From contig CAYQTU010000002.1 in NCBI GenBank assembly GCA_964420575.1, positions 18,534 through 82,533 of the forward strand: a DNA stretch of 64,000 bases. The letters are read 5' to 3'. The notes below the pieces were generated by a model. It was not told where the DNA came from. It saw only the letters and a list, made by a program, of their open reading frames with translations, and searched no databases. The translations under genes were made by a program, and so were the position numbers. This DNA is from an uncultured bacterium. Its GTDB lineage: Bacteria > Omnitrophota > Omnitrophia > Omnitrophales > Aquincolibacteriaceae. Positions 26,019 to 62,913 of this stretch are shown here, piece after piece; positions within the stretch are counted from its first letter, which is position 1; every line of letters starts with the position of its first letter.

Positions 26019-27824
26019 ATGATTACCATGGAGAAGAAGAAACCGGAGAATGGTATTTCTGAGGAAGATAAGATCTATTTAAACGTTATCGAGAAAGCGG
26101 CTTTTGAAGGGTTTGCGAAACTCATCGATCCGGTCACGGAATTCCCGGTGGATATTGCGTCCGTTACGGGCGGGAATCTCGAATGGGATTATAAAAATCC
26201 GTATCGCAGCAAAACCTCTCCCACCAATATCGCGCTTGGATTCTTGTATGTATTGCTCGCTTGCGAAAGAGGCTTTATCAGTTGGGTAAAGACATACGAA
26301 CACGCGCTTCGGATGTTTGGGATGCTCAGGCTTTTGGAAACGTTCGAAGGATTTCATTACAACTGGTATTACCTAAACGGGAAAAGCGAGACGGTGCCTG
26401 TCGTGACGTATAACCGTTTTATCTCGTCGGTAGATAACGGCAACCTCGATATTGCGCTTATGATCGTCGCGGAATATTTCAAGAACTCGACTCTCGCGAA
26501 AAAAATACATAAACTGCTTGTAAACAGGGACTACCGTTTCTTTTTTGATAAGAACCCGAGCCGGCCGGGAAATCAAATGATAAGCGTGGGGTTTGACGCA
26601 CGGAAGGAGCAGTTCACTCCCTCCGATTACTCGGTTTTTAATACAGAAGCGCGAATGATGGTTCTGCTTTCGGTTTTGAAGGACCATGTTCCGGAATCCG
26701 CGTGGAAAAAACAATCTAGGCTTGTACGTACTTACAAAACCACGGAAGGAGAAATTATTCCAGTCGTGGCTCCTTGGGGCGGCAATCTCTTTGAAGGACT
26801 CTTTGCGGATGAACTGATTGGGGGAGATAGAATTGCGCCGAAAGCGTTTCTTTCGAATGCGCTTAATTTAATCAAAATCCATCAGGATTACGGGAAACGA
26901 ATCTCGGAATCCGGGATTTGGGGGATCTCAAATGGGGAAGTGCCGGGAGAGGATCGTTACGAGATGGCGGGAGTAAGAGACATTGCTTACAGCCAGTTCC
27001 CCGGCGAGTTCGTTACACCGTACTCGACTTTTCTTGCGCTTAAATACGATACCGCTGCTGCCATAGAAAATTTGAGGAAGATGGAAGAGCTGAATCCCGA
27101 TAGCTTTAACCGGAATTTCGGGTTTGTCGATTCCCTCGATCCCAAGACCGGCGTAATTAACCGAAACATTCTGAGCCTTGATAAAGGAATGGAATGTTTG
27201 GCGCTTGGGAATTTCCTGAACGCTATGGATGGAAAGAAAAGGACTTCCGATTATTTCCAGGATTATTTGAAAAACTGTCTTTGGCGCGAGAAAGCGGAAA
27301 AACTTTTGAAGGATGAAGAACGCCATCCTTCGTTTCAGGCGCTATCGGTTACGGGAAAACGCACGAAAAGAATCCAAGCGTCCTTTGTGATCTATATCCT
27401 TGGCCTTGAACGGGAGATCGTATCTTTTAAGGGCGAGGGAAAAGCGAAGGCCGAGTTTGAAATCGTTGGAAATCAAAGCAATAAAACACTGTGTGTGCTC
27501 TATGACGTCAGTGAGCGGTATTCTTTCTCGGGGATCTCACTTCGGATGACGGAAATTGGCATCGAACCTTTTGAGAATCTTCTTTTTACAATAAAAGGCA
27601 ATGAAAGACTCGGGATTCCAAAAACCATAAAAGTGGATCTCAAATGGAAAGGCGAGCTGATTCAATTCGGACATTTTCCAATAACGAAAGACTGGACCAC
27701 TGCGAGCCTTTCTTGTCCCTCGTATCCGAAGAGGCTGGATGAAATCTCCTTTGTCTTTGAGAATTCGGCAGTGGGAGACGATTTAAGTGGGGAGATTTAT
27801 ATACAAGCGCTGGCTTTGAAATGA
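26019..27824 (+). CDS. putative glycoside-hydrolase-like protein (six-hairpin / glucoamylase- or DUF3131-like)
   Basis: 601 aa; motifs SPTNIALGFLYVLLACERGFISW, GFHYNWYYLNG, GFVDSLDPKTG...LSLDKGMECLALGNFLNAM reminiscent of (alpha/alpha)6-barrel glycosidases; family assignment untested. Confidence 0.4.
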   Translation: MITMEKKKPENGISEEDKIYLNVIEKAAFEGFAKLIDPVTEFPVDIASVTGGNLEWDYKNPYRSKTSPTNIALGFLYVLLACERGFISWVKTYEHALRMFGMLRLLETFEGFHYNWYYLNGKSETVPVVTYNRFISSVDNGNLDIALMIVAEYFKNSTLAKKIHKLLVNRDYRFFFDKNPSRPGNQMISVGFDARKEQFTPSDYSVFNTEARMMVLLSVLKDHVPESAWKKQSRLVRTYKTTEGEIIPVVAPWGGNLFEGLFADELIGGDRIAPKAFLSNALNLIKIHQDYGKRISESGIWGISNGEVPGEDRYEMAGVRDIAYSQFPGEFVTPYSTFLALKYDTAAAIENLRKMEELNPDSFNRNFGFVDSLDPKTGVINRNILSLDKGMECLALGNFLNAMDGKKRTSDYFQDYLKNCLWREKAEKLLKDEERHPSFQALSVTGKRTKRIQASFVIYILGLEREIVSFKGEGKAKAEFEIVGNQSNKTLCVLYDVSERYSFSGISLRMTEIGIEPFENLLFTIKGNERLGIPKTIKVDLKWKGELIQFGHFPITKDWTTASLSCPSYPKRLDEISFVFENSAVGDDLSGEIYIQALALK

Positions 27825-30946: not shown

Positions 30947-31711
30947 ATGAATCAACCGCCCGATAGCGAAAGTACCGCAATCGACGATTCTGACGATGAG
31001 TCAAAGATTATCACCCCGATTGAGTTAACGGATCGAGACATCGCGATTTTTAAATTGATCCACGAACACCGGTATTTGGCCTACGGCCAGATCCGGGAAG
31101 CGTTCTGGAAAGAGCGTTCGGAGTCGGCTAAAGCCTGTTACCGGCGGATCGAGCGGCTCATTAATTCAGGGTATCTTTCGAAAGGTTATTCCGGCCGAAA
31201 GAATCTGAACATCTATTTCGCGACCGAAAAATCCCTGGAGATCCTGAAAACTCGAAATCTCGATTCCGATATCCGACTTTATGAGCCCACCCCGTATTTC
31301 GATCGCTCCATCGACCATGATTTGAAAGTCGCAAGCGTAAGGATTTTCTTCCGGGAGTTTGGCCTGAGTGACTGGACCCCCGAAAGGGTGTTAAGGGAAC
31401 GCGATCATTTCTTTCGCGTCCCGGACGGTGTTTTGAATATTCGCGGGAAAAAGCTCGCAATCGAGTTCGAAAATCATCTGACGAAGAGCATGAAACGCTA
31501 TCAGGAAGTTTTTGATTATTACAGCGATCACAAGATCTATCTCCTGCTTCTCATGATTATCGACGGGGATACCAAGGACTGGCTCGTTCACGGAATGCGC
31601 TATAACGCCCAGAAGATCTGGATCACAACGTATCAGGAGCTGCTGAATGACAGGGAAGACACGCTTTTTGAAAATAAACGGGCCAGTTTCAAGCTGAGCC
31701 GGCTCTTTTAG
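30947..31711 (+). CDS. replication-relaxation (Replic_Relax) family protein
   Basis: 254 aa; N-terminal wHTH-like LTDRDIAIFKLIHEHRYLAYGQIREAFW...RRIERLINSGYL and C-terminal core HDLKVASVRIFF...VPDGVLNIRGKKLAIEFENH typical of this mobile-element family; RBS AAGGAGG. Confidence 0.55.
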   Translation: MNQPPDSESTAIDDSDDESKIITPIELTDRDIAIFKLIHEHRYLAYGQIREAFWKERSESAKACYRRIERLINSGYLSKGYSGRKNLNIYFATEKSLEILKTRNLDSDIRLYEPTPYFDRSIDHDLKVASVRIFFREFGLSDWTPERVLRERDHFFRVPDGVLNIRGKKLAIEFENHLTKSMKRYQEVFDYYSDHKIYLLLLMIIDGDTKDWLVHGMRYNAQKIWITTYQELLNDREDTLFENKRASFKLSRLF

Positions 31712-31719: not shown

Positions 31720-33540
31720 ATGCAAAAACCTCCTGTTAAAAGAGAACCGTTCCTCGTCCGTATGATCGGCGGGATTTTTGTGGGGATCCCTTTCGGGATT
31801 TCGAAGAGCATTCTGAATCTTTTGACGAGCCTTAAGCGTCCATCGCTTCAAAGACTGATCCCTGGGATACTTGTCTCGTTTTCGCTGTTTTGTGTTTTAA
31901 GGCTCGGCGCTCTTTTCGATCTGCTCGACCTTCTCTTTCAAAGCAGGCGGGTCGATCCCGGCTGGGCTGCGGGCGTGAAATTCGGGTTCTTTTTCCTGCT
32001 TTATCTCGTCATCACTCTCCCCGTTTTCCTGTGCTTTGCTTATTTGAATCAGGAAGCACGATTTTTCAAACAGGATCCAGTCAAACGAGACCCGTCTCCG
32101 GAACGGATGCGGTCTTTCCGCATGAAATCCGATTATCACAAGGTTTATCTGGGGTACGGCCTGAACCAGGAGAAACCTCTTTATCTCACCAACGACCAGC
32201 GCCTGATGCACTGCGAGGTGGTGGGAAGCACCGGCACCGGAAAAACGGAGTCCGTGCTTCTTCCGATGCTCGCCCATGACATCTCGCATGGGAAAGGCGC
32301 GATCATCATTGACGGAAAAGGGGACCTGGAACTCAGGGACAAGATCCGTTACATCGTCCATAAACAGAAGCGCGAGGATGACTTTTACTTCTTCTCGTTA
32401 AGCCATCCCCAAAAATCGAATACTTATAACCCGCTTTACCGCGGGAACCCCACGGAACTGAAAGACAAGCTCGTCAACAGCATGTCCTGGAGCGAGGAGT
32501 TTTACCGGCGCATGGCGGAACAAGCTGCGCTCACGCTTCTTAACGCCATCGCTTCCGCAGGCCGGAAACCCCGGTTTCGCGAGCTTCACGGCTATTTAAC
32601 GGACCTGCAAGCCTTACAAAAACTCTCGGATGAAACCAGGAGCCCGGTCCTGAAGGAAGACATTGGAAAAATGGTCACGGGTTTCAAGGACAATCACAAG
32701 TTTCTGGCCGGGTTAATATCCGATCTTTTCCTCACCTCAAGGAGCGAGTTCTCGGACCTTCTGGATACGGATGATCCCGATATCGATCTGCTTTCGCTTT
32801 ACGAGAATAACCAAATCTGCTATTTCGCGCTCGATCTTCAGAAATACGCGGATACTTCGCGGCGTCTCGGCCGGATGATCATCCAGGATATCCGTGCCGC
32901 TTCGAGCCATATCGTGTCCCATCTTACGGCTTACCGCCGTCATTTCTTCCCGGTGTTTATCGATGACGCCTCGAGTTTTTTGGAGCTTAATTTCATCGAT
33001 TTCCTGAATAAATGCCGGGCGAGCGGATATGCCGTTACGATTCTCCATCAATCCCTGGGGGACCTTGTTTACCGGGGGATGTCCAATTTCCAACAGCAGG
33101 TGGTCGAGAACACCAATATCAAGGTCATTTTGCGCCAGGATGATCCCTTTTCCGTGGAGAAGTTCGTGAAAATCGCCGGGACGCGCCGCACCATGATCGC
33201 GACTTACCAGACGCAGGAACAAATCCTTGGAAAAGGACTGACCGGCGCGGGCTCCGTTCGCGAAGGCCAGACTTTCCGCATCGAGCCGGACCTGATCCGG
33301 GGCCTTAAACGCGGCGAGGCCGCCTTGATCTGGAAAAACCCGTCTTTGTTGACCGATCATATTAAACTCGATTTCTTCGGGTACTCGAGTTATCCGGAAG
33401 AACCGTCCTCAAAAGACAACGGGGAGAAGATTCCAAAGAAAAAACGTGCAATAAAAACTCTCACCGAAGAAAAGGAGAAAACTCATGAGGAGATCAAAAA
33501 TCCGCTTGATATCATCAATCAATTAGAAAAAGAGAAATGA
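31720..33540 (+). CDS. type IV secretion coupling protein (VirD4/TraD/TraG-like ATPase)
   Basis: N-terminal TM helices, Walker A VVGSTGTGKTES, Walker B-like region FFPVFIDDASSFL, 606 aa. Confidence 0.8.
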   Translation: MQKPPVKREPFLVRMIGGIFVGIPFGISKSILNLLTSLKRPSLQRLIPGILVSFSLFCVLRLGALFDLLDLLFQSRRVDPGWAAGVKFGFFFLLYLVITLPVFLCFAYLNQEARFFKQDPVKRDPSPERMRSFRMKSDYHKVYLGYGLNQEKPLYLTNDQRLMHCEVVGSTGTGKTESVLLPMLAHDISHGKGAIIIDGKGDLELRDKIRYIVHKQKREDDFYFFSLSHPQKSNTYNPLYRGNPTELKDKLVNSMSWSEEFYRRMAEQAALTLLNAIASAGRKPRFRELHGYLTDLQALQKLSDETRSPVLKEDIGKMVTGFKDNHKFLAGLISDLFLTSRSEFSDLLDTDDPDIDLLSLYENNQICYFALDLQKYADTSRRLGRMIIQDIRAASSHIVSHLTAYRRHFFPVFIDDASSFLELNFIDFLNKCRASGYAVTILHQSLGDLVYRGMSNFQQQVVENTNIKVILRQDDPFSVEKFVKIAGTRRTMIATYQTQEQILGKGLTGAGSVREGQTFRIEPDLIRGLKRGEAALIWKNPSLLTDHIKLDFFGYSSYPEEPSSKDNGEKIPKKKRAIKTLTEEKEKTHEEIKNPLDIINQLEKEK

Positions 33541-46620: not shown

Positions 46621-46623
46621 GAA

Positions 46624-47790: not shown

Positions 47791-48069
47791 GTGAAAACGC
47801 TGAAAGGTTTCACGAAAATTCAAAGCAAGAACAAGATCCTCGGGCTCGAGTTCCTTGATCTTTTGATCCTGCTTCTTGTTTATCTGGTGGTGTTCGTTTT
47901 CTCCGCGAACCTTCTCCTCAACCTCGCGCTCGTGGCGGGAGCCTATTTTATTTTACGGCTCTACAAAAAAGGGAAGGCCCCGCACTGGGCGGGTTCTGTG
48001 ATCCGGTTCTTGCTAAAGCCCCGGAAATACGTTTTATGCCGGGAAAAAGAAGAGGAGCTTCCCCGATGA
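47791..48069 (+). CDS. VirB3/TrbD-like small membrane protein
   Basis: GTG after GGAGG; 92 aa with one or two TM helices; position between pilin and VirB4-like ATPase with 4-nt overlap. Confidence 0.45.
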   Translation: MKTLKGFTKIQSKNKILGLEFLDLLILLLVYLVVFVFSANLLLNLALVAGAYFILRLYKKGKAPHWAGSVIRFLLKPRKYVLCREKEEELPR

Positions 48070-50579
48070 AAACGAGTCTTCTCACTAAAACTCGGGACCT
48101 CATCCAGCGGGAGAATAGTCCCTCGTTTCTGCGTCAGATCGATCTTTATGACATTGAGGACGGAATTCTGCTTGGGGTAAGCGGCAGCATGGCTCGCGGG
48201 TTCTGGTTTGGCGGAAAGGATGTACTGCTTTCAAGCGAGGCCGAGATCGAGGATTTCGAAAGAAAGATGCGAAAGTTCTTAAACGCGCTCCCGGAAGGAG
48301 CAACTCTCCATTTCGTGGTCCGATCCGGGACTGGGGATGAAGACTCACTCAAGCAATACGCCTCTTCGATTCAAAGCGGAGTTTCGCTTGGAAAAACCTT
48401 TCTTGACGCGAAACTCGGCGCGTACCGGAAACATCCTCTTTTGAAAAAGGAAGTTTTTTTGTTTGTGGTGATCCATCCGAAGACGAGAAAACCGCGTTCC
48501 TCGTTTCTTCCGGATCTGTCCGTCGCATTCGGGAAAAAAGCGCACCGCCTCTCCGAACTTGAATACTCCGCATCGAGAGAAACGCTTCACGCGCTTACGA
48601 CCGAGATCGAGGAAAGTTTCCGTACGCTCGGTTTCGATATGCGCGCGCTTTCCGACCCAGAACTCACCAAGTACTTGTATGAGTTCCTGAACCCGTTTTA
48701 TTCGAAGGAATTCGTTCCCTTCGAGAAAGCCAATTTTAAAGCGAGCGACTCTGACCCGGCGAGCCTCAGAAGCCGTCTTTCGCTTCATCCTCCGCGTCTT
48801 GGGTACGAGTATTTCTATCTCGACCACTATTTTTACCGGGCATTGAATCTCGTCCGTTTGCCTGACTCCACGACTCTTAAATCCATGAAAGATTTCGAGC
48901 GCTCGCTCGGTAACGATTATTTCCTTACGGTCACTTTCGAGGTTCCCGATCAGGACCGCGAGAAATCGGAGATCCGGCGGTACGGGAACTTCGCGAGAGC
49001 GAAAACCTTTTACTCCCGAGCGAAGGATCATGACGCGCTCGCGCAAGCCGGGGAAACGGACGAGCTTTTGACGGAGATTGCCCAAAGCGCGGACAAGCTC
49101 TTTTACGTTTCGTTTTCCGTGATGGTGCGTGCCGAGACCTTGGGAGAAAGCGTCCGGTCTTCCAGGCAGGCGCTTCGTGCTTTCCGGGATCTCGGGGACG
49201 CTCAGGGGATCGAGGACCACATGAATCACGACCGTTTATTTCTTTCGTTTTTGCCGCTTCAGGGCGATGAAAACCCGCTCGCGTTCATAGTTCGTTCCGA
49301 AGTCCTAACGCATCTTCTTCCGCTTCAGGCGAGCTGGCGAGGGACGGACCGGATCGGGCTGCTTCTCAAGACTTACCGTAACGAACCGCTCCGCCTCGAT
49401 CTTTTCGATTCGAAGCTTCAGGCGAAACACAGCGTAATGCTCGGCACGACCGGGAGCGGAAAGAGTTTTTTTACGAACCACTTACTCCTTCATTTCCTGA
49501 TTGAGTCTCTGGATCATGAAGTGATCGTGATCGACCTGGGCGGCAGTTACCGGAAACTGGCCGGAGTTCTGGGCGGGTCTTATCTCGAAGTAGAATGCTC
49601 GGAAAAATACGCGTTAAACCCTTTTCCTGCCAAGGCAGTTCTTTTCCCGGACGGAGGAGCGGACGCGACTTTCATTCAGTTCCTGAAGGAACTGCTCAGG
49701 CAGATGATCGCCCCGAGACGGGAATGGTCCTCAAGCGAGAAGATGATCCTTGAACGGGCGATTCTGGAAGTCTACCGGAATATTGGTGCCCAGGATGCCC
49801 CGCTTCTCGGGGACATCGAAAAATGCCTTCGCAATTTCCAGATCGGGGATGAGGAGGACCGCAAGAAAGCGTATCAGTTCGCGAAAGAACTTACGCTTTT
49901 CACGGAAGGCGAGTACGGGAAGATCCTTAACCGATGCGGGGTCTTTGATTTTAATTCGCGGTTCACGGTTTTCGATCTCCGGAAGATTTCGCAATACCCC
50001 GAGCTTCAGGAGATCCTGCTGCTCATTATTCCGTTCGCGCTTCGCCGTAAATTCGAGAACTTGAATCTAAAGAAGATCCTCGTTTTGGACGAATGCTGGC
50101 AGCTTCTGAAAGACAGTCAGGGGACGGATCTTGTCGAGACCTTCTACAGGACCGCCCGGAAAATGAACGCCGCGGTTTGCTCGATCTCTCAAAACCCAGC
50201 GGATTTTCTCGAGGCGTCCATCGCGAGCGTCATGATCAATAACTCTCCGGTTAAATACATCCTTCGGCTCAAGGAAGGCCACGGGAAACTCTCGCTTTTC
50301 GGGCTGAACGAAAACGAGATCAAAGCGGTCGGGGAGCTTGAGGTGAGACCGGGCCGGTACTCGGAAGTGTTTATCAAATTCGACGATCGAAGCGTCATTG
50401 CCCGTCTTGAGCCAAGCGCTCTCGAGTATTGGGCCGCCACGACGGACGCTCTGGATTTGGCAGAGGAAACCCGGCTCCGGAAAGAACATCCGGATTATCC
50501 GCCGATCAAGATCCTCGAAACGCTTTCCCGGGAGTTTCCAAACGGCGTTAAGAAATCAAACGAGGCGGATCATGTCTGA
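48066..50579 (+). CDS. VirB4/TrbE/CagE-like type IV secretion ATPase
   Basis: ATG 48066 after GAGGAG; Walker A MLGTTGSGKSFF, Walker B ILVLDECWQLL, ~840 aa, conserved C-terminal region. Confidence 0.9.
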   Translation: MKTSLLTKTRDLIQRENSPSFLRQIDLYDIEDGILLGVSGSMARGFWFGGKDVLLSSEAEIEDFERKMRKFLNALPEGATLHFVVRSGTGDEDSLKQYASSIQSGVSLGKTFLDAKLGAYRKHPLLKKEVFLFVVIHPKTRKPRSSFLPDLSVAFGKKAHRLSELEYSASRETLHALTTEIEESFRTLGFDMRALSDPELTKYLYEFLNPFYSKEFVPFEKANFKASDSDPASLRSRLSLHPPRLGYEYFYLDHYFYRALNLVRLPDSTTLKSMKDFERSLGNDYFLTVTFEVPDQDREKSEIRRYGNFARAKTFYSRAKDHDALAQAGETDELLTEIAQSADKLFYVSFSVMVRAETLGESVRSSRQALRAFRDLGDAQGIEDHMNHDRLFLSFLPLQGDENPLAFIVRSEVLTHLLPLQASWRGTDRIGLLLKTYRNEPLRLDLFDSKLQAKHSVMLGTTGSGKSFFTNHLLLHFLIESLDHEVIVIDLGGSYRKLAGVLGGSYLEVECSEKYALNPFPAKAVLFPDGGADATFIQFLKELLRQMIAPRREWSSSEKMILERAILEVYRNIGAQDAPLLGDIEKCLRNFQIGDEEDRKKAYQFAKELTLFTEGEYGKILNRCGVFDFNSRFTVFDLRKISQYPELQEILLLIIPFALRRKFENLNLKKILVLDECWQLLKDSQGTDLVETFYRTARKMNAAVCSISQNPADFLEASIASVMINNSPVKYILRLKEGHGKLSLFGLNENEIKAVGELEVRPGRYSEVFIKFDDRSVIARLEPSALEYWAATTDALDLAEETRLRKEHPDYPPIKILETLSREFPNGVKKSNEADHV

Positions 50580-52997: not shown

Positions 52998-53063
52998 CTC
53001 AAAACCTACGAAAACCTATTCCGAAACACCCCGTTTTGGCCCAATACTATGAGGGGAGATGTA
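52998..53063 (+). promoter_or_regulatory. conserved ~60-bp promoter-like element, copy 3 of 3
   Basis: TCTCAAAACCTACGAAAACCTATTCCGAAACACCCCGTTTTGGCCCAATACTATGAGGGGAGATG, ~85 bp upstream of the VirB9-like gene. Confidence 0.6.
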
Positions 53064-53144
53064 CCGGTCTCCCGGGGGCCATTCGGGCCCTTCAAGATGA
53101 CTTGGTTTCTCATCCCCTCCATTTACATAAGGAGCGGGGAATCC

Positions 53145-54170: not shown

Positions 54171-55147
54171 AGGAAAGGATAGAAATGTTTAAGAAAAAAC
54201 CAGAAAAGAAACCGGACGATTTAACGCCTCCGCCGGAACAGGAATTTTTCGATGAACCGAAGCGCGTGAATAAAGCGGCGGGGTTCGTTCAGGATCTGTT
54301 TGAGAAGAAACGGTTCCGTGTTGCATTCGTAATCGCCGGAGTTTTCATCCTTTCAGTGCTTCTTTTCTATAAACCGTCCCCCAAACATATCGAGAGGCCA
54401 GTTCCTCAGCCGGAAGAGAACCGGATCGTTATCACGAGCCAGTCCATGGAACGCGCGATCGATTCCTCTGCGAAAGGGAAGACCTCGCGTGTTAAGCAAA
54501 TCGAATCCCGCCAAAATCTTTCTCAAAAACGCAAATTCACGAGCGAAATGGCAGTCTTCATCGAAAAGGCCGAAAAACCAAGACCGGAACTCTCTTCTCA
54601 GGGACGTACTGTTGATGTGAAGCTCGGTATCCCTTCCGGGACGAAGATTCCGGCACTTTTGAGCGAGCGGATCTTTTCGTTCAATGTCGCCGCTCCCGTG
54701 ACGGCAGTGCTTACCAAAGATTTCAGCCTCAAAAATCAAGTTTTGATCCCCCAAGGTTCCCGGTTCCTGGGGGAAGTGAACGTCGTGAAATCGGTGGACC
54801 GGGTGAACGTTCGATTTGATCTTTTGATCTTTCCGGATGGACGCGAGCTTCGCATCCGGGCGATCGCTCTTTCCGAGGATGGTTCGGGCGGGATTAAAGG
54901 AAAAGTGGATAAACACACCGACACGAAAGTCCTCAAGGCCATTGGGGAGACCCTGCTTGCCGGCGCTTCTCTTTTTGTCGGCGGGAGAAGCCAGGACGCC
55001 TACAGCCTTGAAGATCAGATGCGTGTCAATCTCGCGGACAATCTCACGAATCAGGCGTCGCAGGACTTACGAAGCGTCAAAGTGGACAAGAGCATTACGG
55101 TCGATTCCGGGATCAACATCCAGGTAATGCTTCTCGAAGCAATTTAA
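54158..55147 (+). CDS. VirB10/TrbI-like T4SS protein
   Basis: Cytoplasmic N-term, TM (FVIAGVFILSVLLFY), Pro-rich linker, C-terminal barrel pattern GTKIPALLSERIFS...VTAVLTKD...LIPQGSRFLGEV...RFDLLIFPDGREL...GSGGIKGKVDKH. Confidence 0.7.
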   Translation: MVQMKERIEMFKKKPEKKPDDLTPPPEQEFFDEPKRVNKAAGFVQDLFEKKRFRVAFVIAGVFILSVLLFYKPSPKHIERPVPQPEENRIVITSQSMERAIDSSAKGKTSRVKQIESRQNLSQKRKFTSEMAVFIEKAEKPRPELSSQGRTVDVKLGIPSGTKIPALLSERIFSFNVAAPVTAVLTKDFSLKNQVLIPQGSRFLGEVNVVKSVDRVNVRFDLLIFPDGRELRIRAIALSEDGSGGIKGKVDKHTDTKVLKAIGETLLAGASLFVGGRSQDAYSLEDQMRVNLADNLTNQASQDLRSVKVDKSITVDSGINIQVMLLEAI

Positions 55148-55171: not shown

Positions 55172-55420
55172 ATGAAGAAAAGATACGAAGGCGGATTCAA
55201 GGAAGTGAAGAAGGTGGCTGTGGTCGAGACGCGGGACGGTGAGGAACTGCATTTTACCAAAGTGGAAGTGGACGGAAAAATCCGGGGGGATATCCGGTAT
55301 TTCACAGCTCGGGAAGGACAATCGATGATGCCGGGAAGACGGGGGATCCTGATTCCTGAAAATCCGAAAACGTTTCAGGAGAACGTTGAAAAACTGATCA
55401 AGAGTCTTTCGGAAAAGTAG
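55172..55420 (+). CDS. hypothetical protein
   Basis: RBS AACAAGGAGGAG; 82 aa. Confidence 0.5.
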   Translation: MKKRYEGGFKEVKKVAVVETRDGEELHFTKVEVDGKIRGDIRYFTAREGQSMMPGRRGILIPENPKTFQENVEKLIKSLSEK

Positions 55421-55473: not shown

Positions 55474-56826
55474 ATGAAAAAGGGTAACGTGTGGGGTGTC
55501 GCCGTAACGCTTTTTGCGGTCGTTTTGTTTTCCGCGAATGCTTTCAACGCCGCAGCGGCGGATGTCGCCCTTTCGCCGGAGCAGTTTGGGTCCCTTTTAA
55601 CTCTCGATGAAGCCGTGGCAAGAGCGCTCAAAAACCACGCGGAAGTGAAACGGGCGGTTGCCCGGCTTCAAAAAGAGGAGTCCCTTTACAAAGGGGCCCT
55701 CGCAGAGTTTTTTCCCAAACTATCCGGCGAGATCACGTCCGCAGTCGCGACGGGCGATAAACATTTCGTGAATTACGTGGATACGGGGATTGAGCAGCCG
55801 ATTTTTCAGGGCGGGAAAGCGGTGGCGCAGAAACAGAAACAAAAGGCGATTGTTCAAAGCGAACAATTACGGTTGGAGCAGGCCAAACTCGATGTCGAAG
55901 CCGGCGTCCGGGTCTTGTACGCCGAGGTGCTTTCGGAAAAGGAACTGACCCGGATCGCGCAAGGCGAGGTCAAGGAACTTTCCACGCAGTATGAGCGGAT
56001 CAAGAAACTCGTCGAGCAGGAGGTTCTTCCTCGCTACGAATTTTTCAGGATGGAGACGCTTTTCCAGGGCGCGAAACAAGCGCTCGTCAAACACAAGGAA
56101 ACCTGCGATTACCTGTTTACGGTTCTTAAGGAAACGATCGGGATCGGGGAAGGAGAATCCCTGGATCTGGAACCTCTCGGGGATTTCCAGGAACTTGACG
56201 AGAACGCGCTTTCCTATCTTACAAGCGCCCGCAAAAGCGATCCGGTCTATAAACTCCGGGACCTCAAGATCCGCGAAAAAGAGTATGAGAAAAAGGAGCT
56301 TTCCGCCGACCGGTATCCGCACTTAAGCCTTACCGCGAAATGGAACGAGGCGAGCGATGTTTTCGTGGACACAAACCGCGTGATGGTTGGTTTTGTCGGG
56401 AAATGGAACATCTGGGATTTCGGCAGGCTCGGTTCGAAGATCAACGCGAAATCTCATGAGATCGAGGAAATGAAATGGGAAGGCGAACTTCAGGTGAAAA
56501 AACACGAACGCGGGATTCGCGAGGCGTTTCACGAGGCCCGCGCCGTCCGCGAAAAGATCAGGTTAACGGAAGCGCTCATCCGCGAACGCGAGGAACTCTA
56601 TAAAAACGAAAAGACAAGATTGATCGCCGGGGAAAAAGGCTCCGGAGAATTGATCGATTCCTTTATGGCGCTCGAGGAAGCGAAGATCAAAAACGTGCAG
56701 GCGGTGGCCGAATACCGCGTTCTTCTCGTGAAACTTGAGAAAAAAGCGAATTTCGAAACGGAATCGCAAGGTTCCGAGACCGAAATGCCGGTTCCGCCCT
56801 TCGACTCCGGGGAGGTGGAGGAATGA
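55474..56826 (+). CDS. TolC-family outer membrane efflux protein
   Basis: ATG 55474 after GGGAGG; signal peptide MKKGNVWGVAVTLFAVVLFSANAFNAAAA; two OEP-like repeats with coiled-coil character. Confidence 0.7.
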   Translation: MKKGNVWGVAVTLFAVVLFSANAFNAAAADVALSPEQFGSLLTLDEAVARALKNHAEVKRAVARLQKEESLYKGALAEFFPKLSGEITSAVATGDKHFVNYVDTGIEQPIFQGGKAVAQKQKQKAIVQSEQLRLEQAKLDVEAGVRVLYAEVLSEKELTRIAQGEVKELSTQYERIKKLVEQEVLPRYEFFRMETLFQGAKQALVKHKETCDYLFTVLKETIGIGEGESLDLEPLGDFQELDENALSYLTSARKSDPVYKLRDLKIREKEYEKKELSADRYPHLSLTAKWNEASDVFVDTNRVMVGFVGKWNIWDFGRLGSKINAKSHEIEEMKWEGELQVKKHERGIREAFHEARAVREKIRLTEALIREREELYKNEKTRLIAGEKGSGELIDSFMALEEAKIKNVQAVAEYRVLLVKLEKKANFETESQGSETEMPVPPFDSGEVEE

Positions 56827-58409
56827 TGACGATCAAGATCCCCGTTCCCGGGTGGTTCAAGGACCCTAGAAAAAGAACGGGGCTTTTTCTTGGGACAGTG
56901 TTCGTGCTGACGCTTGCCGCCACTTATCTTGTGGCCTCCTCCGTTGTTATGACGGAAGACACGTTTCTTTTGAGCGCGGCATGGATCGCTGGCTTCGGGT
57001 TTCTCTTCTTTAACGTGGCCTATCTTTTTCTGACAAGCGCGGTGCATCCATTCCTTAAGACGCCTATCCTGAAAGAAGACTACGTGAAACGGTTCCCGAA
57101 AGTGGCGCTGGTTTATCCGATCCGCAATGAATCCTACGGGATGTCGCAGAGAATGCATTATTCGTTTTCCGGCAATAAATTCCATAACGTGGATCTGTGG
57201 ATTCTTTCGGATTCTGCCGAGGAGTTTTCGCCCTATGAAGCGAACCTTGTCGCGAAACTCGAAGCTCTTCATCCCGGCCGCGTGTTTTATAGAAGAAGAG
57301 CGCATCCGGTTGAGCGGAAACAGGGGAATATCGCCGAGTTTCTGCATTCGCATCCGGAGTATGACTACCTATATATATGCGACGCGGATGGAATGGTGCC
57401 CAAGGGGACGCTCCTTAAGCTACTCAGGAAAGCGGAACATCCCGAAAACCGGGATATCGCGATCTTTCAGGCGTTCGTCAGGATCGCGCACGCGACGACC
57501 TGGTACTCGCGCTTTGAAAGGATCGGAACGCAGTTTGCGCAGCGCCTGAACTTCGTCGCGGTTCAAGCGATATTCGGGCGCACTATCTCTTTCGGGCATC
57601 ATCATCTTGCCCGGAGAGAAGCGATTTCCAAGATCCGACTCCCCAAGGGACTGCTTTCGCACGATAACTGGGACACCGTTCGCCTGGATCAGATGGGATA
57701 CCGGGTCGCGTTTTGTCCGGATGTGGAGGCTTATGACGAAGCGCCCTCGAACTACCTTGAGGCGAAGGCAAGGGCGAGCCGCTGGGCACAGGGAACGCTT
57801 CAAGGCGTGCCCCTTATTTTTGAGCCGAACGTGTCGCTCGCTTCCCGGTTTCTCGCCGGCTACGGTATTTATCTTTACCTTTCGGATATCGTGTTCTTTT
57901 TTTGGGTGTTGCTCGGGCTCTTTTCACATTCCTTGGTCACCGGGGAACTGATCTATTTCCGGATCGATTCGCTCTGGATGAATTTTTTCTCGAATCAGAT
58001 CCTGAAATGGATCCTTCTGTTCAGTCTTGCGGTTGTTTTTCTGCATAAAGCCGTGATCGTGAAAACGTGGGAAGATGTCCGCCATTATCTTTATGAACTC
58101 GTTATCTCGACTTTGGTCACGCTCAATAACTTTATCTACAGCCCGCTCGCCATTCTGAGCATCCCTTTAAAGAAGCTGAACTGGCGGCCCATGGTGAAAA
58201 ACCCGTTCGCCACGGTAGATTTCGCCACCGCGGTCCGCTCGCTATGGATCGGGACCGTGTTCGGGCTCTTCGGTCTTTATTTTTGCACGAATCTCACGCC
58301 GTACTTCGTTTGGCAGATAACGCCCATTCTCATCAGTCTTATTTTTTCGATACCTGCAGTCTATTTCACAGCAAAATCAATTCCCGCGAAATTGAGAAGC
58401 TGGATTTGA
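56823..58409 (+). CDS. membrane glycosyltransferase family 2, OpgH/MdoH-like
   Basis: KQGNIAEF, YLYICDADGMV (D,D), DNWDTVR, RASRWAQGTLQ (QxxRW-type) plus N- and C-terminal TM helices; 4-nt overlap with TolC-like gene. Confidence 0.7.
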   Translation: MMTIKIPVPGWFKDPRKRTGLFLGTVFVLTLAATYLVASSVVMTEDTFLLSAAWIAGFGFLFFNVAYLFLTSAVHPFLKTPILKEDYVKRFPKVALVYPIRNESYGMSQRMHYSFSGNKFHNVDLWILSDSAEEFSPYEANLVAKLEALHPGRVFYRRRAHPVERKQGNIAEFLHSHPEYDYLYICDADGMVPKGTLLKLLRKAEHPENRDIAIFQAFVRIAHATTWYSRFERIGTQFAQRLNFVAVQAIFGRTISFGHHHLARREAISKIRLPKGLLSHDNWDTVRLDQMGYRVAFCPDVEAYDEAPSNYLEAKARASRWAQGTLQGVPLIFEPNVSLASRFLAGYGIYLYLSDIVFFFWVLLGLFSHSLVTGELIYFRIDSLWMNFFSNQILKWILLFSLAVVFLHKAVIVKTWEDVRHYLYELVISTLVTLNNFIYSPLAILSIPLKKLNWRPMVKNPFATVDFATAVRSLWIGTVFGLFGLYFCTNLTPYFVWQITPILISLIFSIPAVYFTAKSIPAKLRSWI

Positions 58410-58428
58410 AGAGGAGGAGCCAAAAGAA

Positions 58429-59496
58429 ATGAGTGACACACAGACGAACGAAAAACCCGAGAAAGACAAAAATAAAAACACGCAGGAGCCAGCTCTTTTT
58501 GAAGAGAAAACGGAGGGGGGCGGTAAATGGAAAACGAGAGTTTTCCTGATCCTTCTTATCCTGGGAGTGGGCCTTATTTTCTGGCCCAAGGGATACATCA
58601 AGGGAGAAGGGATTGTTCAAGCCGATCGGTTTGCGAGGATCGGGCTTACGAGTTCGGGGATTCTGAGGGAGCTGCTGCATAAGAAAGGGGATACGGTGAA
58701 GAAAGGAGAGTTGCTCGTGCGTTTCGAGAATCCGGAACTCTCCCGGAAATTCGAGGAACGGAAACTGAACCTCGAGATCCTGAATCACGATAAAACACGG
58801 CTTGAAAAGCAGGTTGAATTTCTCGCTAAAGACAAAGACCGGAAGAGCATTCTTTTCGAGAACGGAGTAATCGGCCGTCTTCAGTTCGATAAAGCCGCGC
58901 TGGATTATACCCAGGTCGCGGAAGAACTCAGTATGCGCTTAAAAGAGATCGAGTCGGTTGAAGGGGAAGTGAAATATTTGAAGGAAAGAGCGGAGTCACT
59001 TGAGCTTAAAGCGCCGTTTGACGGAATGCTTCTTACGGATCCCGGTATTACGATCGGGAATCTCTTGAAGGAAGGCGATTTTGTTTTGGAATTTGCGGAC
59101 CCGCGAAGTTTCTTTCTTGAAGTTCTTGTGTTTGAAAAGGAAGTGGAAAAGGTCGCGCCGGGAAACACCGTCACGGCCCGATTCCGTGCTTTTCCCTGGA
59201 AGACTTATTCCGGGGTTGTGACGGAGGTTGGTCCTCGCACCACCGATGAGATCGAGAAAGTTTTTAATGTGAAACACGTGGTCCCTTGCGAGATCAAATT
59301 GGATGAGTTCCCATCAAACGCGAAATACGGAATGCGTGCCTGGATCAAGATCAGCGGAAGACGCCGGATCTTGCAAAATAAGACGCCAGTAATCCAAAAA
59401 CCTTCTCAGGAGGAGCTTGCGAGATTCATCAATCCGAAGGCGCTCGATATGAAAGCTCCGGGTAAGGAGAAAGCAAACGATGTACCGGTTAAATAA
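58429..59496 (+). CDS. HlyD-family membrane fusion / periplasmic adaptor protein
   Basis: N-terminal TM, biotinyl/lipoyl-like hairpin TSSGILRELLHKKGDTVKKGELLVRFENPEL, coiled-coil, beta-barrel C-term. Confidence 0.75.
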   Translation: MSDTQTNEKPEKDKNKNTQEPALFEEKTEGGGKWKTRVFLILLILGVGLIFWPKGYIKGEGIVQADRFARIGLTSSGILRELLHKKGDTVKKGELLVRFENPELSRKFEERKLNLEILNHDKTRLEKQVEFLAKDKDRKSILFENGVIGRLQFDKAALDYTQVAEELSMRLKEIESVEGEVKYLKERAESLELKAPFDGMLLTDPGITIGNLLKEGDFVLEFADPRSFFLEVLVFEKEVEKVAPGNTVTARFRAFPWKTYSGVVTEVGPRTTDEIEKVFNVKHVVPCEIKLDEFPSNAKYGMRAWIKISGRRRILQNKTPVIQKPSQEELARFINPKALDMKAPGKEKANDVPVK

Positions 59497-59538: not shown

Positions 59539-60336
59539 ATGAACGCAATTATTCTGGCAGCCGGTTTTGGAACGCGCCTTTATCCGTTGACCCAATTCAA
59601 ACCGAAAGCGCTTCTTGAAATCGGAGATAAAACCATCCTCGATCATTTGGTCGAGAAATTGGAAGCTTCTCCGGTCATTCAAAAGATCGTTTTAGTGACG
59701 AATGGAAGGTTTGCCGTCGATTTCATGGAATGGGCAAAGAAAAGGACCGCGTTGACTCGAAAACCGATCCGGATCGTTGAAAATAACGTGTACGAACCGG
59801 AAAAAAGATTGGGAGCGGTTCAGGACCTGCGGCTTGGAATGCAAGTCGAACGAAACCGCACGGCTGGTTATGTTGTTTTGTGCGGGGACAATTACTTTGA
59901 TTATCCGTTGACGCATTTCATTGGTCTTTACTGTACCGGGCACAGGAACGGCGCTTTCGTCGGACTTTATGACGTGAAAGACAAATCCGTCGCGACGCAA
60001 TACGGTGTCGTGGAAGTCGATCACACGGGACGTATTAAGGATTTTCAGGAAAAACCGGAAAATCCAAAATCAACGCAGGTAAGTGTCGGTGTCTACTACA
60101 TTCCGAATAAATTCCAAAGGTACGTTACGGAATACCTCGAAATCGAGAAACTGAATCCCGACAAGATCGGCGATTTTTTCGCGTGGCTTGCCAAAAAGGA
60201 AATTCTGCACGGCGTGGACTTTGACGGAGCCTGGTTTGATATCGGTTCAATCGAATCCTACGAAGAAGCGAGAGAGTATTTCGATACCAAGCGGTCTGCT
60301 GAATGCGCCTCAAAGGAGGGCAAGGGAAATGAATGA
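59539..60336 (+). CDS. sugar-phosphate nucleotidyltransferase (NTP_transferase family)
   Basis: MNAIILAAGFGTRLYPLTQFKPKALL signature G-x-G-T-R-L. Confidence 0.85.
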   Translation: MNAIILAAGFGTRLYPLTQFKPKALLEIGDKTILDHLVEKLEASPVIQKIVLVTNGRFAVDFMEWAKKRTALTRKPIRIVENNVYEPEKRLGAVQDLRLGMQVERNRTAGYVVLCGDNYFDYPLTHFIGLYCTGHRNGAFVGLYDVKDKSVATQYGVVEVDHTGRIKDFQEKPENPKSTQVSVGVYYIPNKFQRYVTEYLEIEKLNPDKIGDFFAWLAKKEILHGVDFDGAWFDIGSIESYEEAREYFDTKRSAECASKEGKGNE

Positions 60337-61513
60337 AAAAAATAGTCTCGTGAAAAAGGGGGAGGAAATAGCGAAAAGATCGGCGGAATACCGCGAGCTT
60401 TTCACTCAGATTTCGACACTGATTGAGGAAGGAAGAAAAGCCGCGGTTCGTCAGATTAATACGACGCTGATTGCGACTTATTGGATGATCGGGATGAGGA
60501 TTGTTGAATTTGAGCAGGGAGGCAAGGAAAGGGCCGCTTATGGGGAAGAGACCTTACGAAATCTCGCTGGGGAGCTTTCGAAGAAGTACGGCAATGGATT
60601 CAGCTTCCCACAGCTTAAAAATATACGTCAGTTCTATTTGGTGTATCGACAAGATGGGTTTAAACCATCCAGTCAGGTAGCACTCCAAAAAGGCTACACA
60701 CTGTGTAGCCAATTTCCCTACCTTCTTAGAGAAATAAACACCCATTTCACTCTTTCATGGTCTCATTACCGGCTCCTTATGCGAATAGAAGATCCTTACA
60801 AGCGCTCTTTTTATGAAAAATTGAGTGTTCAGAATCATTGGTCGGTCCGACAGCTCGACCGGGAAATCAATGCGCTGCTTTATGAAAGAACAGCTCTATC
60901 GAAACGTAAGGATATTGTGCTTGCTCGAGCCAATGAGAACCCGATTGTCGCAAGACCTGAAGATGAGGTTAAAGATTCCTATGTTTTAGACTTTCTCGGG
61001 CTTAAAAAAGATTACGCGGAATCCGATCTAGAGGATGCGTTGATCCGCCATCTTGAGAATTTCCTCCTTGAACTTGGCCGGGGTTTTGCGTTTGTTGCTC
61101 GTCAGAAAAGATTTGCCGTAGACGGCGACGAATACCGGATCGATTTGTTGCTCTACAACATCCTCTTGAAGGCCTATATAGTTCTGGAGCTGAAACTTAC
61201 CAAGTTCACTCATGCCCACGCCGGCCAAACGAATTTCTATGTCAATTGGGTAAAAGACAACGTTCTGCCGCAAGCGGAAAATGATCCGATCGGCATTATC
61301 CTCTGTTCTGACAAGAACAATACGACCGTCAGGTACGCGACCGGCGGCCTCAATAACAAGATTTTTGTCTCCAAATACCAGCTTCAATTACCAAAACCGG
61401 AAGAACTCGAAAGAGAGCTTGAACGCGGGAAGCAGCTATTCTTGCAAAATCACGTTAACCGTGAGGCCGGTCTCGATCAGAAAGCCCAAGAGAAGCGGGA
61501 GAAAGAGCAATGA
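60329..61513 (+). CDS. YhcG/DUF1016-type PD-(D/E)xK nuclease family protein
   Basis: ATG 60329 after AAAGGAGGG; N-terminal helical domain (LSWSHYRLLMRIEDPYKRSFYEKLSVQNHWSVRQLDREI) and C-terminal restriction-endonuclease-like core (RIDLLLYNILLKAYIVLELK). Confidence 0.7.
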   Translation: MNEKNSLVKKGEEIAKRSAEYRELFTQISTLIEEGRKAAVRQINTTLIATYWMIGMRIVEFEQGGKERAAYGEETLRNLAGELSKKYGNGFSFPQLKNIRQFYLVYRQDGFKPSSQVALQKGYTLCSQFPYLLREINTHFTLSWSHYRLLMRIEDPYKRSFYEKLSVQNHWSVRQLDREINALLYERTALSKRKDIVLARANENPIVARPEDEVKDSYVLDFLGLKKDYAESDLEDALIRHLENFLLELGRGFAFVARQKRFAVDGDEYRIDLLLYNILLKAYIVLELKLTKFTHAHAGQTNFYVNWVKDNVLPQAENDPIGIILCSDKNNTTVRYATGGLNNKIFVSKYQLQLPKPEELERELERGKQLFLQNHVNREAGLDQKAQEKREKEQ

Positions 61514-62151
61514 GAAAGATGATTTTTTTGATCCTGTGTTTTATCACGGTTGCCGGATGTGCGGCGCCTAAGCTCCCGGGAAAACCAGATATCGATAGTT
61601 CGCTCCATTCGGATCAGAGGCTATCGGTTGGGGTGGCGAATACCATAGATGAAAGAGACAGTGAAAAAATAGGAATGATCGGCGCGGCAGCCGTCATTGT
61701 TAAGAAAAGCGATCTCGCTGACTTAGTGGGAAACCGTTTGATTCGCTACATCAATGAAAAAATTGGCCTCGATGTGGAACGCGTCCAGCTCAATGAAACA
61801 GATTCCATAAAATTGATCACGACTAGAAAAAAGATGAAAGGCGTCATTATTTTGAAAATCAAGTCACTTAGCATATTTGCGGCGGGGGCTTTAACTCATC
61901 CCATTGAAGCAAAAATGATCCTTGAACTGACCGTTCTGGATGAAACCGGCCAAAAAGTTTATCAAAGGATAGCGAATGGTCACCATAAACAGCAGGTGAC
62001 GATTCCCATAACCGAAGAAACAACGAAAGCTCTTGTTGAATCGGTTATTAAAACGGCGCTGAGGCAATACGGCGAAGACCCGGATTTGAAAAAAATAATC
62101 GCCAAATTCAAATATGGAACTATTGGCGGAGTGATCGCCAGCATTTTTTAG
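61510..62151 (+). CDS. lipoprotein, hypothetical
   Basis: Lipobox ITVAGC at N-terminus (MRKMIFLILCFITVAGCAAP). Confidence 0.6.
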   Translation: MRKMIFLILCFITVAGCAAPKLPGKPDIDSSLHSDQRLSVGVANTIDERDSEKIGMIGAAAVIVKKSDLADLVGNRLIRYINEKIGLDVERVQLNETDSIKLITTRKKMKGVIILKIKSLSIFAAGALTHPIEAKMILELTVLDETGQKVYQRIANGHHKQQVTIPITEETTKALVESVIKTALRQYGEDPDLKKIIAKFKYGTIGGVIASIF

Positions 62152-62219
62152 AAAAACAAAACAAGGCCTATTCTAAATTTAAACACGGGAAAGGTAATTC
62201 AAAGAAAGGAGTAAGTAAA

Positions 62220-62819
62220 ATGAGACAGAAATTCACGATTGGTATTTTGGCGGGTTTGATGGTCGCGGCCTTCGCGGTTCAATCGCAAGCGATGGCGGCC
62301 GCGGAAGAATTGGTTATCGCTGATTTCAATACGGGTGACAAACCTAATAATATCGGGGGTGATTTCGGCGTATGGAATAAGGATCCGGATGACTCAACGC
62401 AGAAATCCGAAATGAAATTTGAGTCGGATGATACATTGGGTGATAGTACTGGTTATTCGATTCGCTTGGACTATGATGTGGACTCTCCGAATCCTGCATA
62501 TAACGGGTTCTGGATGAAGCTGAACGGCGTGGATGCGACTCCCTATAATTCTCTGACGTTTTATGTGAAAGGGGATACGAAAGCAGGATTCACGAGGCGG
62601 GTAAAGATCGAATTGAAGGATAAGAGCAACAAACCTTCAGCCTACATTGTTGGAAATATCACGGACCAATGGCAAAAGGTTTCAATCCCGTTTGATAAAA
62701 TTCGTCACATTCAGGATTGGAATTCGCTCAACGAATTCGTAATTGTTTTTGATGATCTGAATTCAAATCCTAAAACGGGAACAATTTTTATTGATCAGAT
62801 TGCTTTTTCAAAAGAATAA
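62220..62819 (+). CDS. secreted beta-sandwich protein, possibly carbohydrate-binding (CIA30/CBM11-like)
   Basis: Signal peptide MRQKFTIGILAGLMVAAFAVQSQA; motif GFWMKLNGVDATPYNSLTFYVKGD resembles CIA30-type domains; weak. Confidence 0.4.
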   Translation: MRQKFTIGILAGLMVAAFAVQSQAMAAAEELVIADFNTGDKPNNIGGDFGVWNKDPDDSTQKSEMKFESDDTLGDSTGYSIRLDYDVDSPNPAYNGFWMKLNGVDATPYNSLTFYVKGDTKAGFTRRVKIELKDKSNKPSAYIVGNITDQWQKVSIPFDKIRHIQDWNSLNEFVIVFDDLNSNPKTGTIFIDQIAFSKE

Positions 62820-62913
62820 GTTGGCTCTACTGTAAAGTAGATGACAGGCAATGCCGTCTCTAAGTACAATACGACGATAAATCCTTTTTTATGATAAGAA
62901 TAGAGAGACGGTT

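Follow-up and report, generated by a model that had tools for sequence, protein, structure and literature searches.

Three tightly packed genes at positions 55474 to 59496 of a 64,000-nt stretch of DNA from an uncultured Omnitrophota bacterium (contig CAYQTU010000002.1; the whole stretch is referred to here as the window) constitute a real and conserved unit of a synthase, an adaptor and a TolC-type duct within the type IV secretion system (T4SS) operon of a mobile element common in Omnitrophota. The synthase is a polytopic family-2 glycosyltransferase (GT2), and the adaptor is an HlyD-type membrane fusion protein (MFP). On balance, we favour the reading that the module is a self-contained, synthase-dependent exporter of the kind proposed for Xcs and Bgs, here built around an OpgH/Cgs-like synthase, that it probably makes a β-1,2-glucan, and that it was captured by a lineage of T4SS-bearing integrative conjugative elements (ICEs). 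Polysaccharide export through an MFP and a TolC duct had been suggested in an earlier note drawn from the letters of this DNA, and it is now supported by fold, motifs, synteny, loss of the genes en bloc and a glucanase fusion. The alternative offered there, an efflux pump co-opted around a glycosyltransferase, is disfavoured, since no inner-membrane transporter besides the GT2 was found between or beside the three genes in any of about 100 loci.

The layout of the module is compact, and the outer-membrane channel, GT2 and adaptor genes are present where they had been read by eye. The TolC-family outer-membrane factor (55474..56826, +, 450 aa) is followed by the OpgH/Cgs-like GT2 (56823..58409, +, 528 aa), the periplasmic adaptor (58429..59496, +, 355 aa) and a sugar-1-phosphate nucleotidyltransferase (59539..60336, +, 265 aa), and all four proteins exceed their Pfam gathering thresholds. 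The TolC stop and the GT2 start share 4 nt (ATGA), gaps of 19 nt and 42 nt separate GT2 from HlyD and HlyD from the nucleotidyltransferase, and every gene beyond about 28 kb in the window lies on the + strand. The TolC open reading frame (ORF) can be read from 55441 (461 aa); its likely start is 55474 rather than 55441, an ATG behind a GGGAGGAA ribosome-binding site that gives the protein a signal-peptide-like N-terminus. The duct protein matches Pfam OEP with 134.6 bits (cut-off 22, E 4.7e-39) in two repeats, and its hydropathy profile has one signal-like hydrophobic helix at the N-terminus. The adaptor matches HlyD_D23 (55.6 bits, cut-off 30, E 5.9e-15) and HlyD_3 (41.7 bits, cut-off 22.2, E 2.1e-10), and has a single N-terminal transmembrane (TM) anchor at residues 39-57.

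The GT2 itself carries much of the argument. It matches Pfam Glyco_trans_2_3 with 46.1 bits, and two N-terminal and at least three C-terminal TM helices in its hydropathy profile flank a cytoplasmic GT-A domain. The D,D and QxxRW-type motifs noticed earlier are borne out as D, DxD, SHD and RxxRW across 28 aligned homologues of 32-92% identity, among which D130 (LSDS) is at least 90% conserved and D187-A-D189, H280-D281 (SHD) and R317-x-x-R320-W321 are invariant or nearly so. These motifs line up with annotated MdoH (24% identity over 471 aa, E 5e-23), and the best NCBIfam matches are nine MdoH (OpgH) models (best E 7.8e-46), the CelA cellulose synthase model reaching E 1.8e-3. The impression that OpgH/MdoH is the closest known family thus holds at the level of sequence, though with scores that fall well short of the equivalog cut-offs. 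The GT2 gave no PilZ match at E<=0.01, and the protein ends soon past its last TM helix.

An AlphaFold2 model of the GT2 built on the alignment of 28 relatives (pLDDT 90.7, pTM 0.89) was compared with the PDB by Foldseek. The cyclic β-1,2-glucan synthase Cgs (8rf0) ranked first (E 9e-18, TMq 0.71), followed by BcsA (9b8v, 4p00), hyaluronan synthases, plant CesA, CslF6 and Fks1; across Cgs, BcsA, the hyaluronan synthases and CesA, TMq ranged from 0.5 to 0.71 and E from 1e-9 to 9e-18. When the family profile was searched against PDB sequences, Cgs was the sole match. Judged by its predicted fold and its motifs, the GT2 is a membrane-integrated, processive and channel-forming synthase, and a kinship with processive synthases, on which the earlier idea of an export machine hinged, is what the profile and fold comparisons returned.

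The family around this synthase is small and well delimited. A database search returned about 106 relatives at 32-92% identity, nearly all labelled Candidatus Omnitrophota, and below about 32% the matches drop sharply to MdoH-annotated proteins at about 24%. A profile search over 1.84 billion cluster representatives likewise gave some 35-40 clusters above 250 bits, mostly of 485-550-aa proteins, and beneath them many proteins of 600-860 aa that level off at about 175-215 bits, which we take to be OpgH-like because the distant GT2 matches in the database search carry the MdoH annotation. No close relatives were found on annotated plasmids, where all matches lie below 30% identity and all are MdoH.

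The position of the module within the T4SS operon is also conserved. Upstream of it, as had been suspected, lie genes for a VirB4/TraC-type T4SS ATPase (48036..50579, +; Pfam P-loop_TraG 3.2e-34, TraC_F_IV; syntenic in relatives), VirB6-like (51476-52336, +) and VirB8-like (52333-52980, +) proteins recognised by position and synteny, a VirB9-like protein (53049-54170, +; Pfam CagX 4e-9, NCBIfam VirB9) and, directly ahead of the module, a VirB10/TrbI-like protein (54158-55147, +; Pfam TrbI 1.5e-18, NCBIfam VirB10). The homologues of the VirB6- and VirB8-like genes in one related locus (L058) bear faint or weak CtnDOT_TraJ and VirB8 Pfam marks. A strong terminator-like hairpin stands at 46621-46654, and because no comparably strong intergenic terminator follows from there to about 62 kb, it is plausible from the sequence that the module is co-transcribed with the T4SS genes.

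A pattern scan with one genome per GTDB species yielded 53 GT2 loci, with which the window proteins were compared by tblastn (loci from this and other scans are numbered with L). A single order, VirB4, a 255-aa protein, VirB6, VirB8, VirB9, VirB10, an 82-aa protein (s82), TolC, GT2, HlyD and the nucleotidyltransferase, is seen wherever a locus has enough flank, over a range of GT2 identity from 92% to as low as 40%. Counted over T4SS-clade loci with sufficient flank, the GT2 is accompanied by TolC in 28/29, HlyD in 35/35, the nucleotidyltransferase in 30/32 and VirB10 in 24/24; in the single TolC miss (L049), TolC is in place and the GT2 is fragmented. The converse scan, of aligned VirB10 homologues against a metagenome collection, gave 75 loci, 44 of them with at least 2.6 kb downstream, and a GT2 follows VirB10 in 39 of these 44 (38 by the automatic window and L085, which has an insert of about 2 kb, on inspection). 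The remainder are instructive. Four loci (L100 at 3855-5740, L106, L109 and L115) retain VirB10, s82, the nucleotidyltransferase and a lipoprotein gene and have lost exactly TolC-GT2-HlyD, with about 340 nt in their place; L127 keeps only an HlyD-like remnant, and the most distant loci, L132 and L134, have other genes there. TolC-GT2-HlyD act as one unit, which is usual yet not obligatory for this T4SS family. Co-conservation, by which the proposal could have fallen, is thus strong from the GT2 side and from the VirB10 side. The placement inside a putative mobile element also stands, as the module lies in the T4SS operon of an ICE-like element; the suggestion that it is cargo does not, since deep synteny and a fixed place in the T4SS operon rule out variable mobile-element cargo and mark it as a conserved operon module.

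Several metagenome-assembled genomes (MAGs) hold two to four copies of the locus, and 14 contigs end inside the GT2 (L006, L013, L017, L020, L021, L026, L028, L029, L033, L035, L037, L038, L048 and L051), which is consistent with near-identical copies of the element breaking short-read assemblies. The bins of a few loci bear labels other than Omnitrophota, namely L024 (Desulfobacterales), L040 and L042 (Planctomycetia), L041 (Actinomycetota) and L050 (Rudaea); either mis-binning or horizontal transfer of the element or system could account for them.

The origin of the module can be approached through its distant relatives. At 32-43% identity to the GT2, T4SS genes are absent, but the partners are usually retained: 10 loci have an HlyD gene next to the GT2 and 6 have an OEP/TolC gene there. 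When MdoH-like sequences are used to root a neighbour-joining tree, all GT2s linked to a T4SS fall into a single derived clade within the T4SS-less systems, and the simplest history would therefore be a single capture of a chromosomal GT2-HlyD-TolC system by a T4SS element.

These relatives also offer a hint to the nature of the polymer. In L054 (7439-9973, -), L040, L042 and L043 (~12484-16068, +), TolC and a domain of Pfam 'Glycoamylase' are joined in one ORF, and three more such fusions (P0214-P0216, 60-80% identity) occur in NCBI and ENA assemblies; the fusion ORFs lie next to GT2 and HlyD genes. The fused domain matches GH144 endo-β-1,2-glucanases and their relatives (XCC2207, 8xul, 3e-53; 5gzh, 1e-37; BDI_3064, 5z06), and the ORFs of L040, L042 and L043 run about 370 aa past it. 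The C-terminus of TolC is periplasmic, and the fusion would therefore place the glucanase beside the entrance of the duct, where the polymer-specific hydrolases BcsZ and XcsC are likewise found in other synthase-dependent systems. Characterised members of GH144, GH162 and GH189 act on β-1,2-glucans (PMC11842490). Stand-alone genes with a GH144 domain lie within about 8 kb of the GT2 in L039, L044 and L050, and those of L039 (1,234 aa) and L044 (1,277 aa) also hold a region similar to the secreted protein encoded at 62220-62819 of the window.

The window has an enzyme of the same superfamily. The glycosidase-like gene pointed out earlier at 26019..27824 (+) is indeed present and encodes a β-1,2-glucan-type GH189/GH144-superfamily enzyme (Pfam Glycoamylase 1.6e-12; in the PDB, the GH189 cyclisation domain of Cgs, 8wy1, 1.6e-18, and Cgs 8rf9 residues 1238-1440). 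It lies 29 kb from the module, has many Omnitrophota homologues and looks chromosomal. We had considered it as part of the element and rejected this, since in the MAG OFTM55 its homologue sits among housekeeping genes (SmpB, EF-P, a LacI regulator, lipid A acyltransferase; L060), about 26 kb from the T4SS-GT2 locus of OFTM55, and has a second gene of DUF3131+Glycoamylase type nearby. A LacI-type regulator (28390-29475, +) pairs with the gene at 26019-27824, and the same pairing is seen in OFTM55. Together, these genes suggest that Omnitrophota routinely process β-1,2-glucans, whether self-made or derived from hosts or prey.

For the linkage of the exported polymer, the sequence affinity of the GT2 to MdoH and Cgs, the rank of Cgs as its top structural match, the GH144 fusion in the sister clade and the β-1,2-glucan-type enzymes in these genomes make β-1,2 about an even bet. 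The proposed machine would then work as follows. The nucleotidyltransferase would make a nucleoside-diphosphate (NDP) sugar in the cytoplasm, probably UDP- or dTDP-glucose, which the GT2 in the inner membrane would polymerise, threading the chain through its own transmembrane channel as in OpgH, Cgs and BcsA. The adaptor, held by its one TM anchor, would bridge the periplasm to a trimeric TolC-type duct, through which the polymer, most likely a β-glucan and as a best guess a β-1,2-glucan, would leave the cell. The chromosomal ancestor of this system would have been captured once by the Omnitrophota T4SS/ICE lineage and kept just behind virB10.

Several points weigh against this reading. The duct protein reaches 84 bits (E 1e-23) against the cut-off of 225 of the NCBIfam TolC subfamily and must therefore be regarded as a divergent TolC/OEP member, the adaptor misses the NCBIfam MFP subfamily cut-offs, and the GT2 misses every MdoH equivalog cut-off (PRK05454.x; best 156.6 bits against 419). 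A physical complex of GT2, MFP and TolC would be a proposal read from gene order; no GT2::MFP fusion was found, and the longer family members P0229, P0234 and P0240 hold GT2 domains only. We infer both the linkage type and the biological role. The variants with en-bloc loss and the divergent loci L127, L132 and L134 are T4SSs without the module, because of which any role of the module in transfer would be accessory. The nucleotidyltransferase is kept in the variants that lost the trio, a mild point against a purely dedicated role. The GH144 fusion was seen in the sister clade, whose GT2s are about 40% identical, and the T4SS-linked loci have no GH144 gene within +/-10 kb. As to the sugar and its linkage, the fold match to BcsA (E 1.5e-17) is nearly equal to that of Cgs (9e-18), and the nucleotidyltransferase scores about equally against mannose-1-phosphate guanylyl-, glucose-1-phosphate thymidylyl- and UTP-glucose-1-phosphate uridylyltransferases. 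CBM_11 modules, which resemble the co-conserved secreted protein at the end of the cluster, are known for β-1,4 and mixed-linkage glucans, so that the linkage could differ.

These last three points, with the fold matches to CslF6 and Fks1, are what favours the rival that survives best, in which the same synthase-MFP-TolC route exports another polymer, be it cellulose, a mixed-linkage or β-1,3 glucan, or a homopolymer of a sugar other than glucose. It is to be taken more seriously than the other rivals, yet we consider it unlikely, since the GT2 has sequence affinity only to the β-1,2-glucan synthases MdoH and Cgs, with CelA at E 1.8e-3, and no PilZ domain was detected in it. The TolC::GH144 fusions of the sister clade also argue for the β-1,2 linkage, which is what GH144 acts on (PMC11842490).

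A different view would be that MFP and TolC belong to a conventional efflux or type I secretion system whose inner-membrane pump is encoded elsewhere, that the GT2 makes periplasmic glucans as OpgH does, and that their adjacency is incidental. It can draw on the nearest solved relatives of the adaptor, which are the drug-pump adaptors EmrA (4tko, E 8e-15) and MacA, and on the closest annotated relatives of the GT2, which make periplasmic glucans. However, the GT2 gene is sandwiched between TolC and HlyD with overlapping or nearly overlapping codons, the roughly 100 loci contain no pump gene, the three genes are lost together, and the trio is also found without a T4SS; furthermore, TolC is fused to a glucanase in some relatives, and an OpgG/OpgD partner is not adjacent, unlike in canonical mdoH loci. 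In our judgement, this makes an incidental adjacency improbable.

We attach still less credence to the proposition that TolC and HlyD are envelope accessories of the T4SS and that the GT2 glycosylates a T4SS component such as a pilin, or modifies the cell wall. The module does lie strictly right behind virB10, apparently in one transcription unit, and VirB1 and VirB7 were not recognised among the element ORFs scanned; against this, the trio predates the association with the T4SS, T4SS operons survive its clean deletion, and the GT2 fold is that of a full channel-forming processive synthase, unlike a protein or lipid glycosyltransferase. Export of a glycolipid in the manner of DevBCA-TolC, the GT2 acting on a lipid acceptor like the GT21 ceramide glucosyltransferases, is just as far-fetched: it is suggested by matches of the GT2 to Pfam Glyco_transf_21 (E 6.6e-9) and of the adaptor to the NCBIfam DevB-family MFP model (E 2.6e-6), but the former is weaker than the matches to generic GT2 families, RxxRW and the C-terminal TM bundle match polymer-translocating synthases, and the glucanase fusion argues for a polysaccharide.

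Viewed as a polysaccharide exporter, the module is best understood beside the systems already known. In Sinorhizobium meliloti, disruption of tolC abolishes the mixed-linkage glucan made by BgsA-BgsB, and a tripartite BgsA-BgsB-TolC complex that links polymer synthesis to export was proposed, an indirect role of TolC not being excluded (PMC13438883). The Omnitrophota module shares with Bgs the combination of an inner-membrane GT2 and an HlyD-type MFP, and Bgs has a TolC requirement; BgsA, however, is cellulose-synthase-like and activated by c-di-GMP, and its tolC is unlinked and shared with other systems (PMC13438883), whereas the module has an OpgH/Cgs-like synthase in which PilZ was not detected, shares its operon with a nucleotidyltransferase and a TolC of its own, and lies inside a T4SS operon. 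A synthase-MFP-TolC route was likewise proposed for extracellular cellulose of cyanobacteria as XcsA-XcsB-TolC (Maeda et al., 2018); according to the review PMC12430437, this model is unvalidated, partly since tolC is unlinked. In Xcs, the genes for the synthase and the HlyD-like protein are often neighbours and come with a glucanase, XcsC, much as GH144 does in the sister clade of the module. Unlike in Xcs, all parts are contiguous in Omnitrophota. The trait that marks Xcs and Bgs-type systems, a synthase gene adjacent to and co-conserved with an MFP gene, is found here, with HlyD behind the GT2 in every one of the T4SS-clade loci counted (35/35) and adjacent in 10 sister-clade loci. By analogy, the module would work like the Xcs/Bgs exporters but outside the cellulose-synthase-like group, to judge from another synthase lineage and a PilZ domain that was not detected.

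OpgH makes β-1,2-glucan backbones and releases them into the periplasm (PMC11842490). The GT2 shares with OpgH/MdoH about 24% identity and the LSD, KxGNI, DxD, LSHD and RxxRWxQG motifs; it differs in its length (528 aa against roughly 600-850 aa), in scoring below every MdoH equivalog cut-off, in having no OpgG/OpgD neighbour, whereas canonical mdoH on Leptospira p74 adjoins opgD, and in its MFP and TolC partners, which imply an extracellular destination. By these sequence measures, it is not an OpgH equivalog. The cyclic glucan synthases Cgs/ChvB/NdvB (8rf0, 8rf9) provide the best structural match and the sole PDB sequence match, and the window also has a homologue of the Cgs GH189 domain. 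They are, however, proteins of about 2,800 aa with GT84, GH189 and GH94 parts, exported by the ABC transporter Cgt/ChvA and unlinked to a T4SS, as opposed to a minimal synthase with an MFP-TolC route embedded in a T4SS operon. In Agrobacterium and Brucella, β-1,2-glucans support host attachment or infection alongside VirB T4SSs. The cellulose machine BcsA-BcsB-BcsC-BcsZ resembles the module in its processive GT2 with a channel of its own, a periplasmic partner, an outer-membrane exit and a polymer-specific periplasmic hydrolase, but BcsB and BcsC, the latter with tetratricopeptide repeats and a β-barrel, are unrelated to MFP and TolC. The literature searched, which was incomplete, yielded no paper on an OpgH-like synthase with HlyD/TolC or on a TolC-GH144 fusion, none on a polysaccharide exporter within a T4SS operon or on VirB10, a glycosyltransferase, HlyD and TolC in one system, and none linking an Omnitrophota T4SS with a glycosyltransferase.

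The genes flanking the module add further detail. The nucleotidyltransferase matches Pfam NTP_transferase with 133.6 bits (E 1.1e-38) and is a likely supplier of NDP-sugar to the GT2; the earlier thought that it could supply the activated sugar fits its co-conservation in 30/32 loci. The s82 gene (55172..55420, +) encodes an 82-aa protein between VirB10 and TolC, its position conserved in most loci; its top three PDB matches are the single-stranded DNA-binding coactivator PC4, at E of only about 0.1, and it is possibly a PC4-like single-stranded DNA binder. L059 has another gene of the PC4 family in its chromosomal flank. Behind the nucleotidyltransferase, a YhcG-type PDDEXK nuclease (60188..61513, +; Pfam YhcG_C E 1.3e-57), listed with a TTG start that falls within the 3' end of the preceding nucleotidyltransferase gene, is variably present, absent or displaced among relatives; by this distribution, it is a variable insert behind the module and outside the machine, and behaves like an insertion. 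It is followed by a predicted lipoprotein (61510..62151, +; LILCFITVAGC), with homologues downstream of the nucleotidyltransferase in many loci and no family assigned, and by the secreted CBM11-like β-sandwich protein (62220..62819, +), which may bind glucan and closes the cluster as another co-conserved member. The latter owes its assignment to homologues that match Pfam CBM_11 (L058, 32 bits, E 1.6e-7; L005, E 1.4e-5; L036, E 1e-3), since the copy in the window gives weak MAM/CBM-type matches only; a comparison with PDB sequences returned no match. In L036, L126 and L128, the CBM-like gene is placed between virB10 and tolC instead.

As a whole, the gene set has, as far as sequence can tell, the anatomy of an integrative conjugative element. 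A relaxase-like gene (30947..31711, +; Pfam Replic_Relax 31.1 bits against a cut-off of 25.3, a weak match) is followed by a type IV coupling protein (31720..33540, +; Pfam TrwB_AAD_bind, TraG-D_C, T4SS-DNA_transf). Between the coupling protein and the T4SS genes lie a MoxR-type AAA ATPase and then a DUF2201 metallopeptidase/VWA protein (38734-41315, +) and a DUF932 protein (44474-45544, +) inside the element, and a helix-turn-helix/sigma-r4 protein is also encoded ahead of VirB4. Annotated relatives (L058, L059) have a TrbC (VirB2) pilin gene ahead of VirB4, and at the end of their clusters, genes for YhcG, a small protein and a CBM_11 protein are succeeded by tyrosine recombinases, of which L058 has a tandem array of four (18664-21584) and L059 a single one of 621 aa, past which housekeeping genes follow (ROK kinase, PC4, M48 peptidase, trigger factor). 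Only 1.2 kb of the window remain past the CBM11-like gene, and the right end of the element is not seen in it. No att-like direct or inverted repeats were found around 27.8-31 kb and 62.8-64 kb, and ARAGORN found no tRNA or tmRNA in the window. At 30124-30186, the intergenic region ahead of the relaxase-like gene holds an inverted repeat of 21 nt (90% complementary, 21-nt spacer) that could be an oriT. The G+C content is 0.35-0.40 at 1-5000 and 62000-64000 of the window and about 0.50 in its middle. Genes for a methyltransferase, a 7TM histidine kinase and a response regulator occupy the left end, and a single ORF of 5,005 aa (10989-26006, +), in which Pfam shows only a HEAT repeat near the C-terminus, immediately precedes the GH189-like gene. 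Omnitrophota are reported to carry giant genes (bioRxiv 10.1101/2023.11.21.568195; 10.64898/2026.06.07.730766).

In the Xcs and Bgs systems, direct passage of polysaccharides through TolC is so far a proposal (PMC13438883, PMC12430437). A compact cassette with a dedicated TolC, synthase, adaptor and precursor enzyme, together with the TolC::glucanase fusion of its sisters, lends strong genomic support to the synthase-MFP-TolC model, and such a small and portable natural cassette is well suited to testing this direct passage. The findings would extend the synthase-MFP-TolC route from cellulose-synthase-like enzymes to the OpgH/Cgs lineage, and imply a β-1,2-type glucan that is secreted rather than periplasmic. 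For the fields of conjugation and exopolysaccharide secretion, this is moderately surprising.

Finally, what purpose the polymer might serve invites speculation. One tentative suggestion is that a surface glucan, possibly held by the CBM11-like protein, improves the adhesion of these very small cells to a mating partner or host during T4SS activity; surface exclusion or protection are alternative purposes. A bolder and slightly more doubtful version would make the β-1,2-glucan exporter an integral, co-transcribed part of the mating apparatus, and its polymer, read by the CBM11-like protein, an adhesin by which these ultrasmall and probably host-dependent cells would cling to the partner or host during the passage of DNA or effectors. 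If true, a polysaccharide would here stabilise mating pairs, which has not been described for any T4SS accessory, and the system would be a genetically linked counterpart of the β-1,2-glucan/VirB partnership of Agrobacterium and Brucella. Across a phylum of uncultured nanobacteria, an exporter has been kept inside a conjugative T4SS operon, which may bear on how these cells make contact for gene transfer or for interaction with their hosts.

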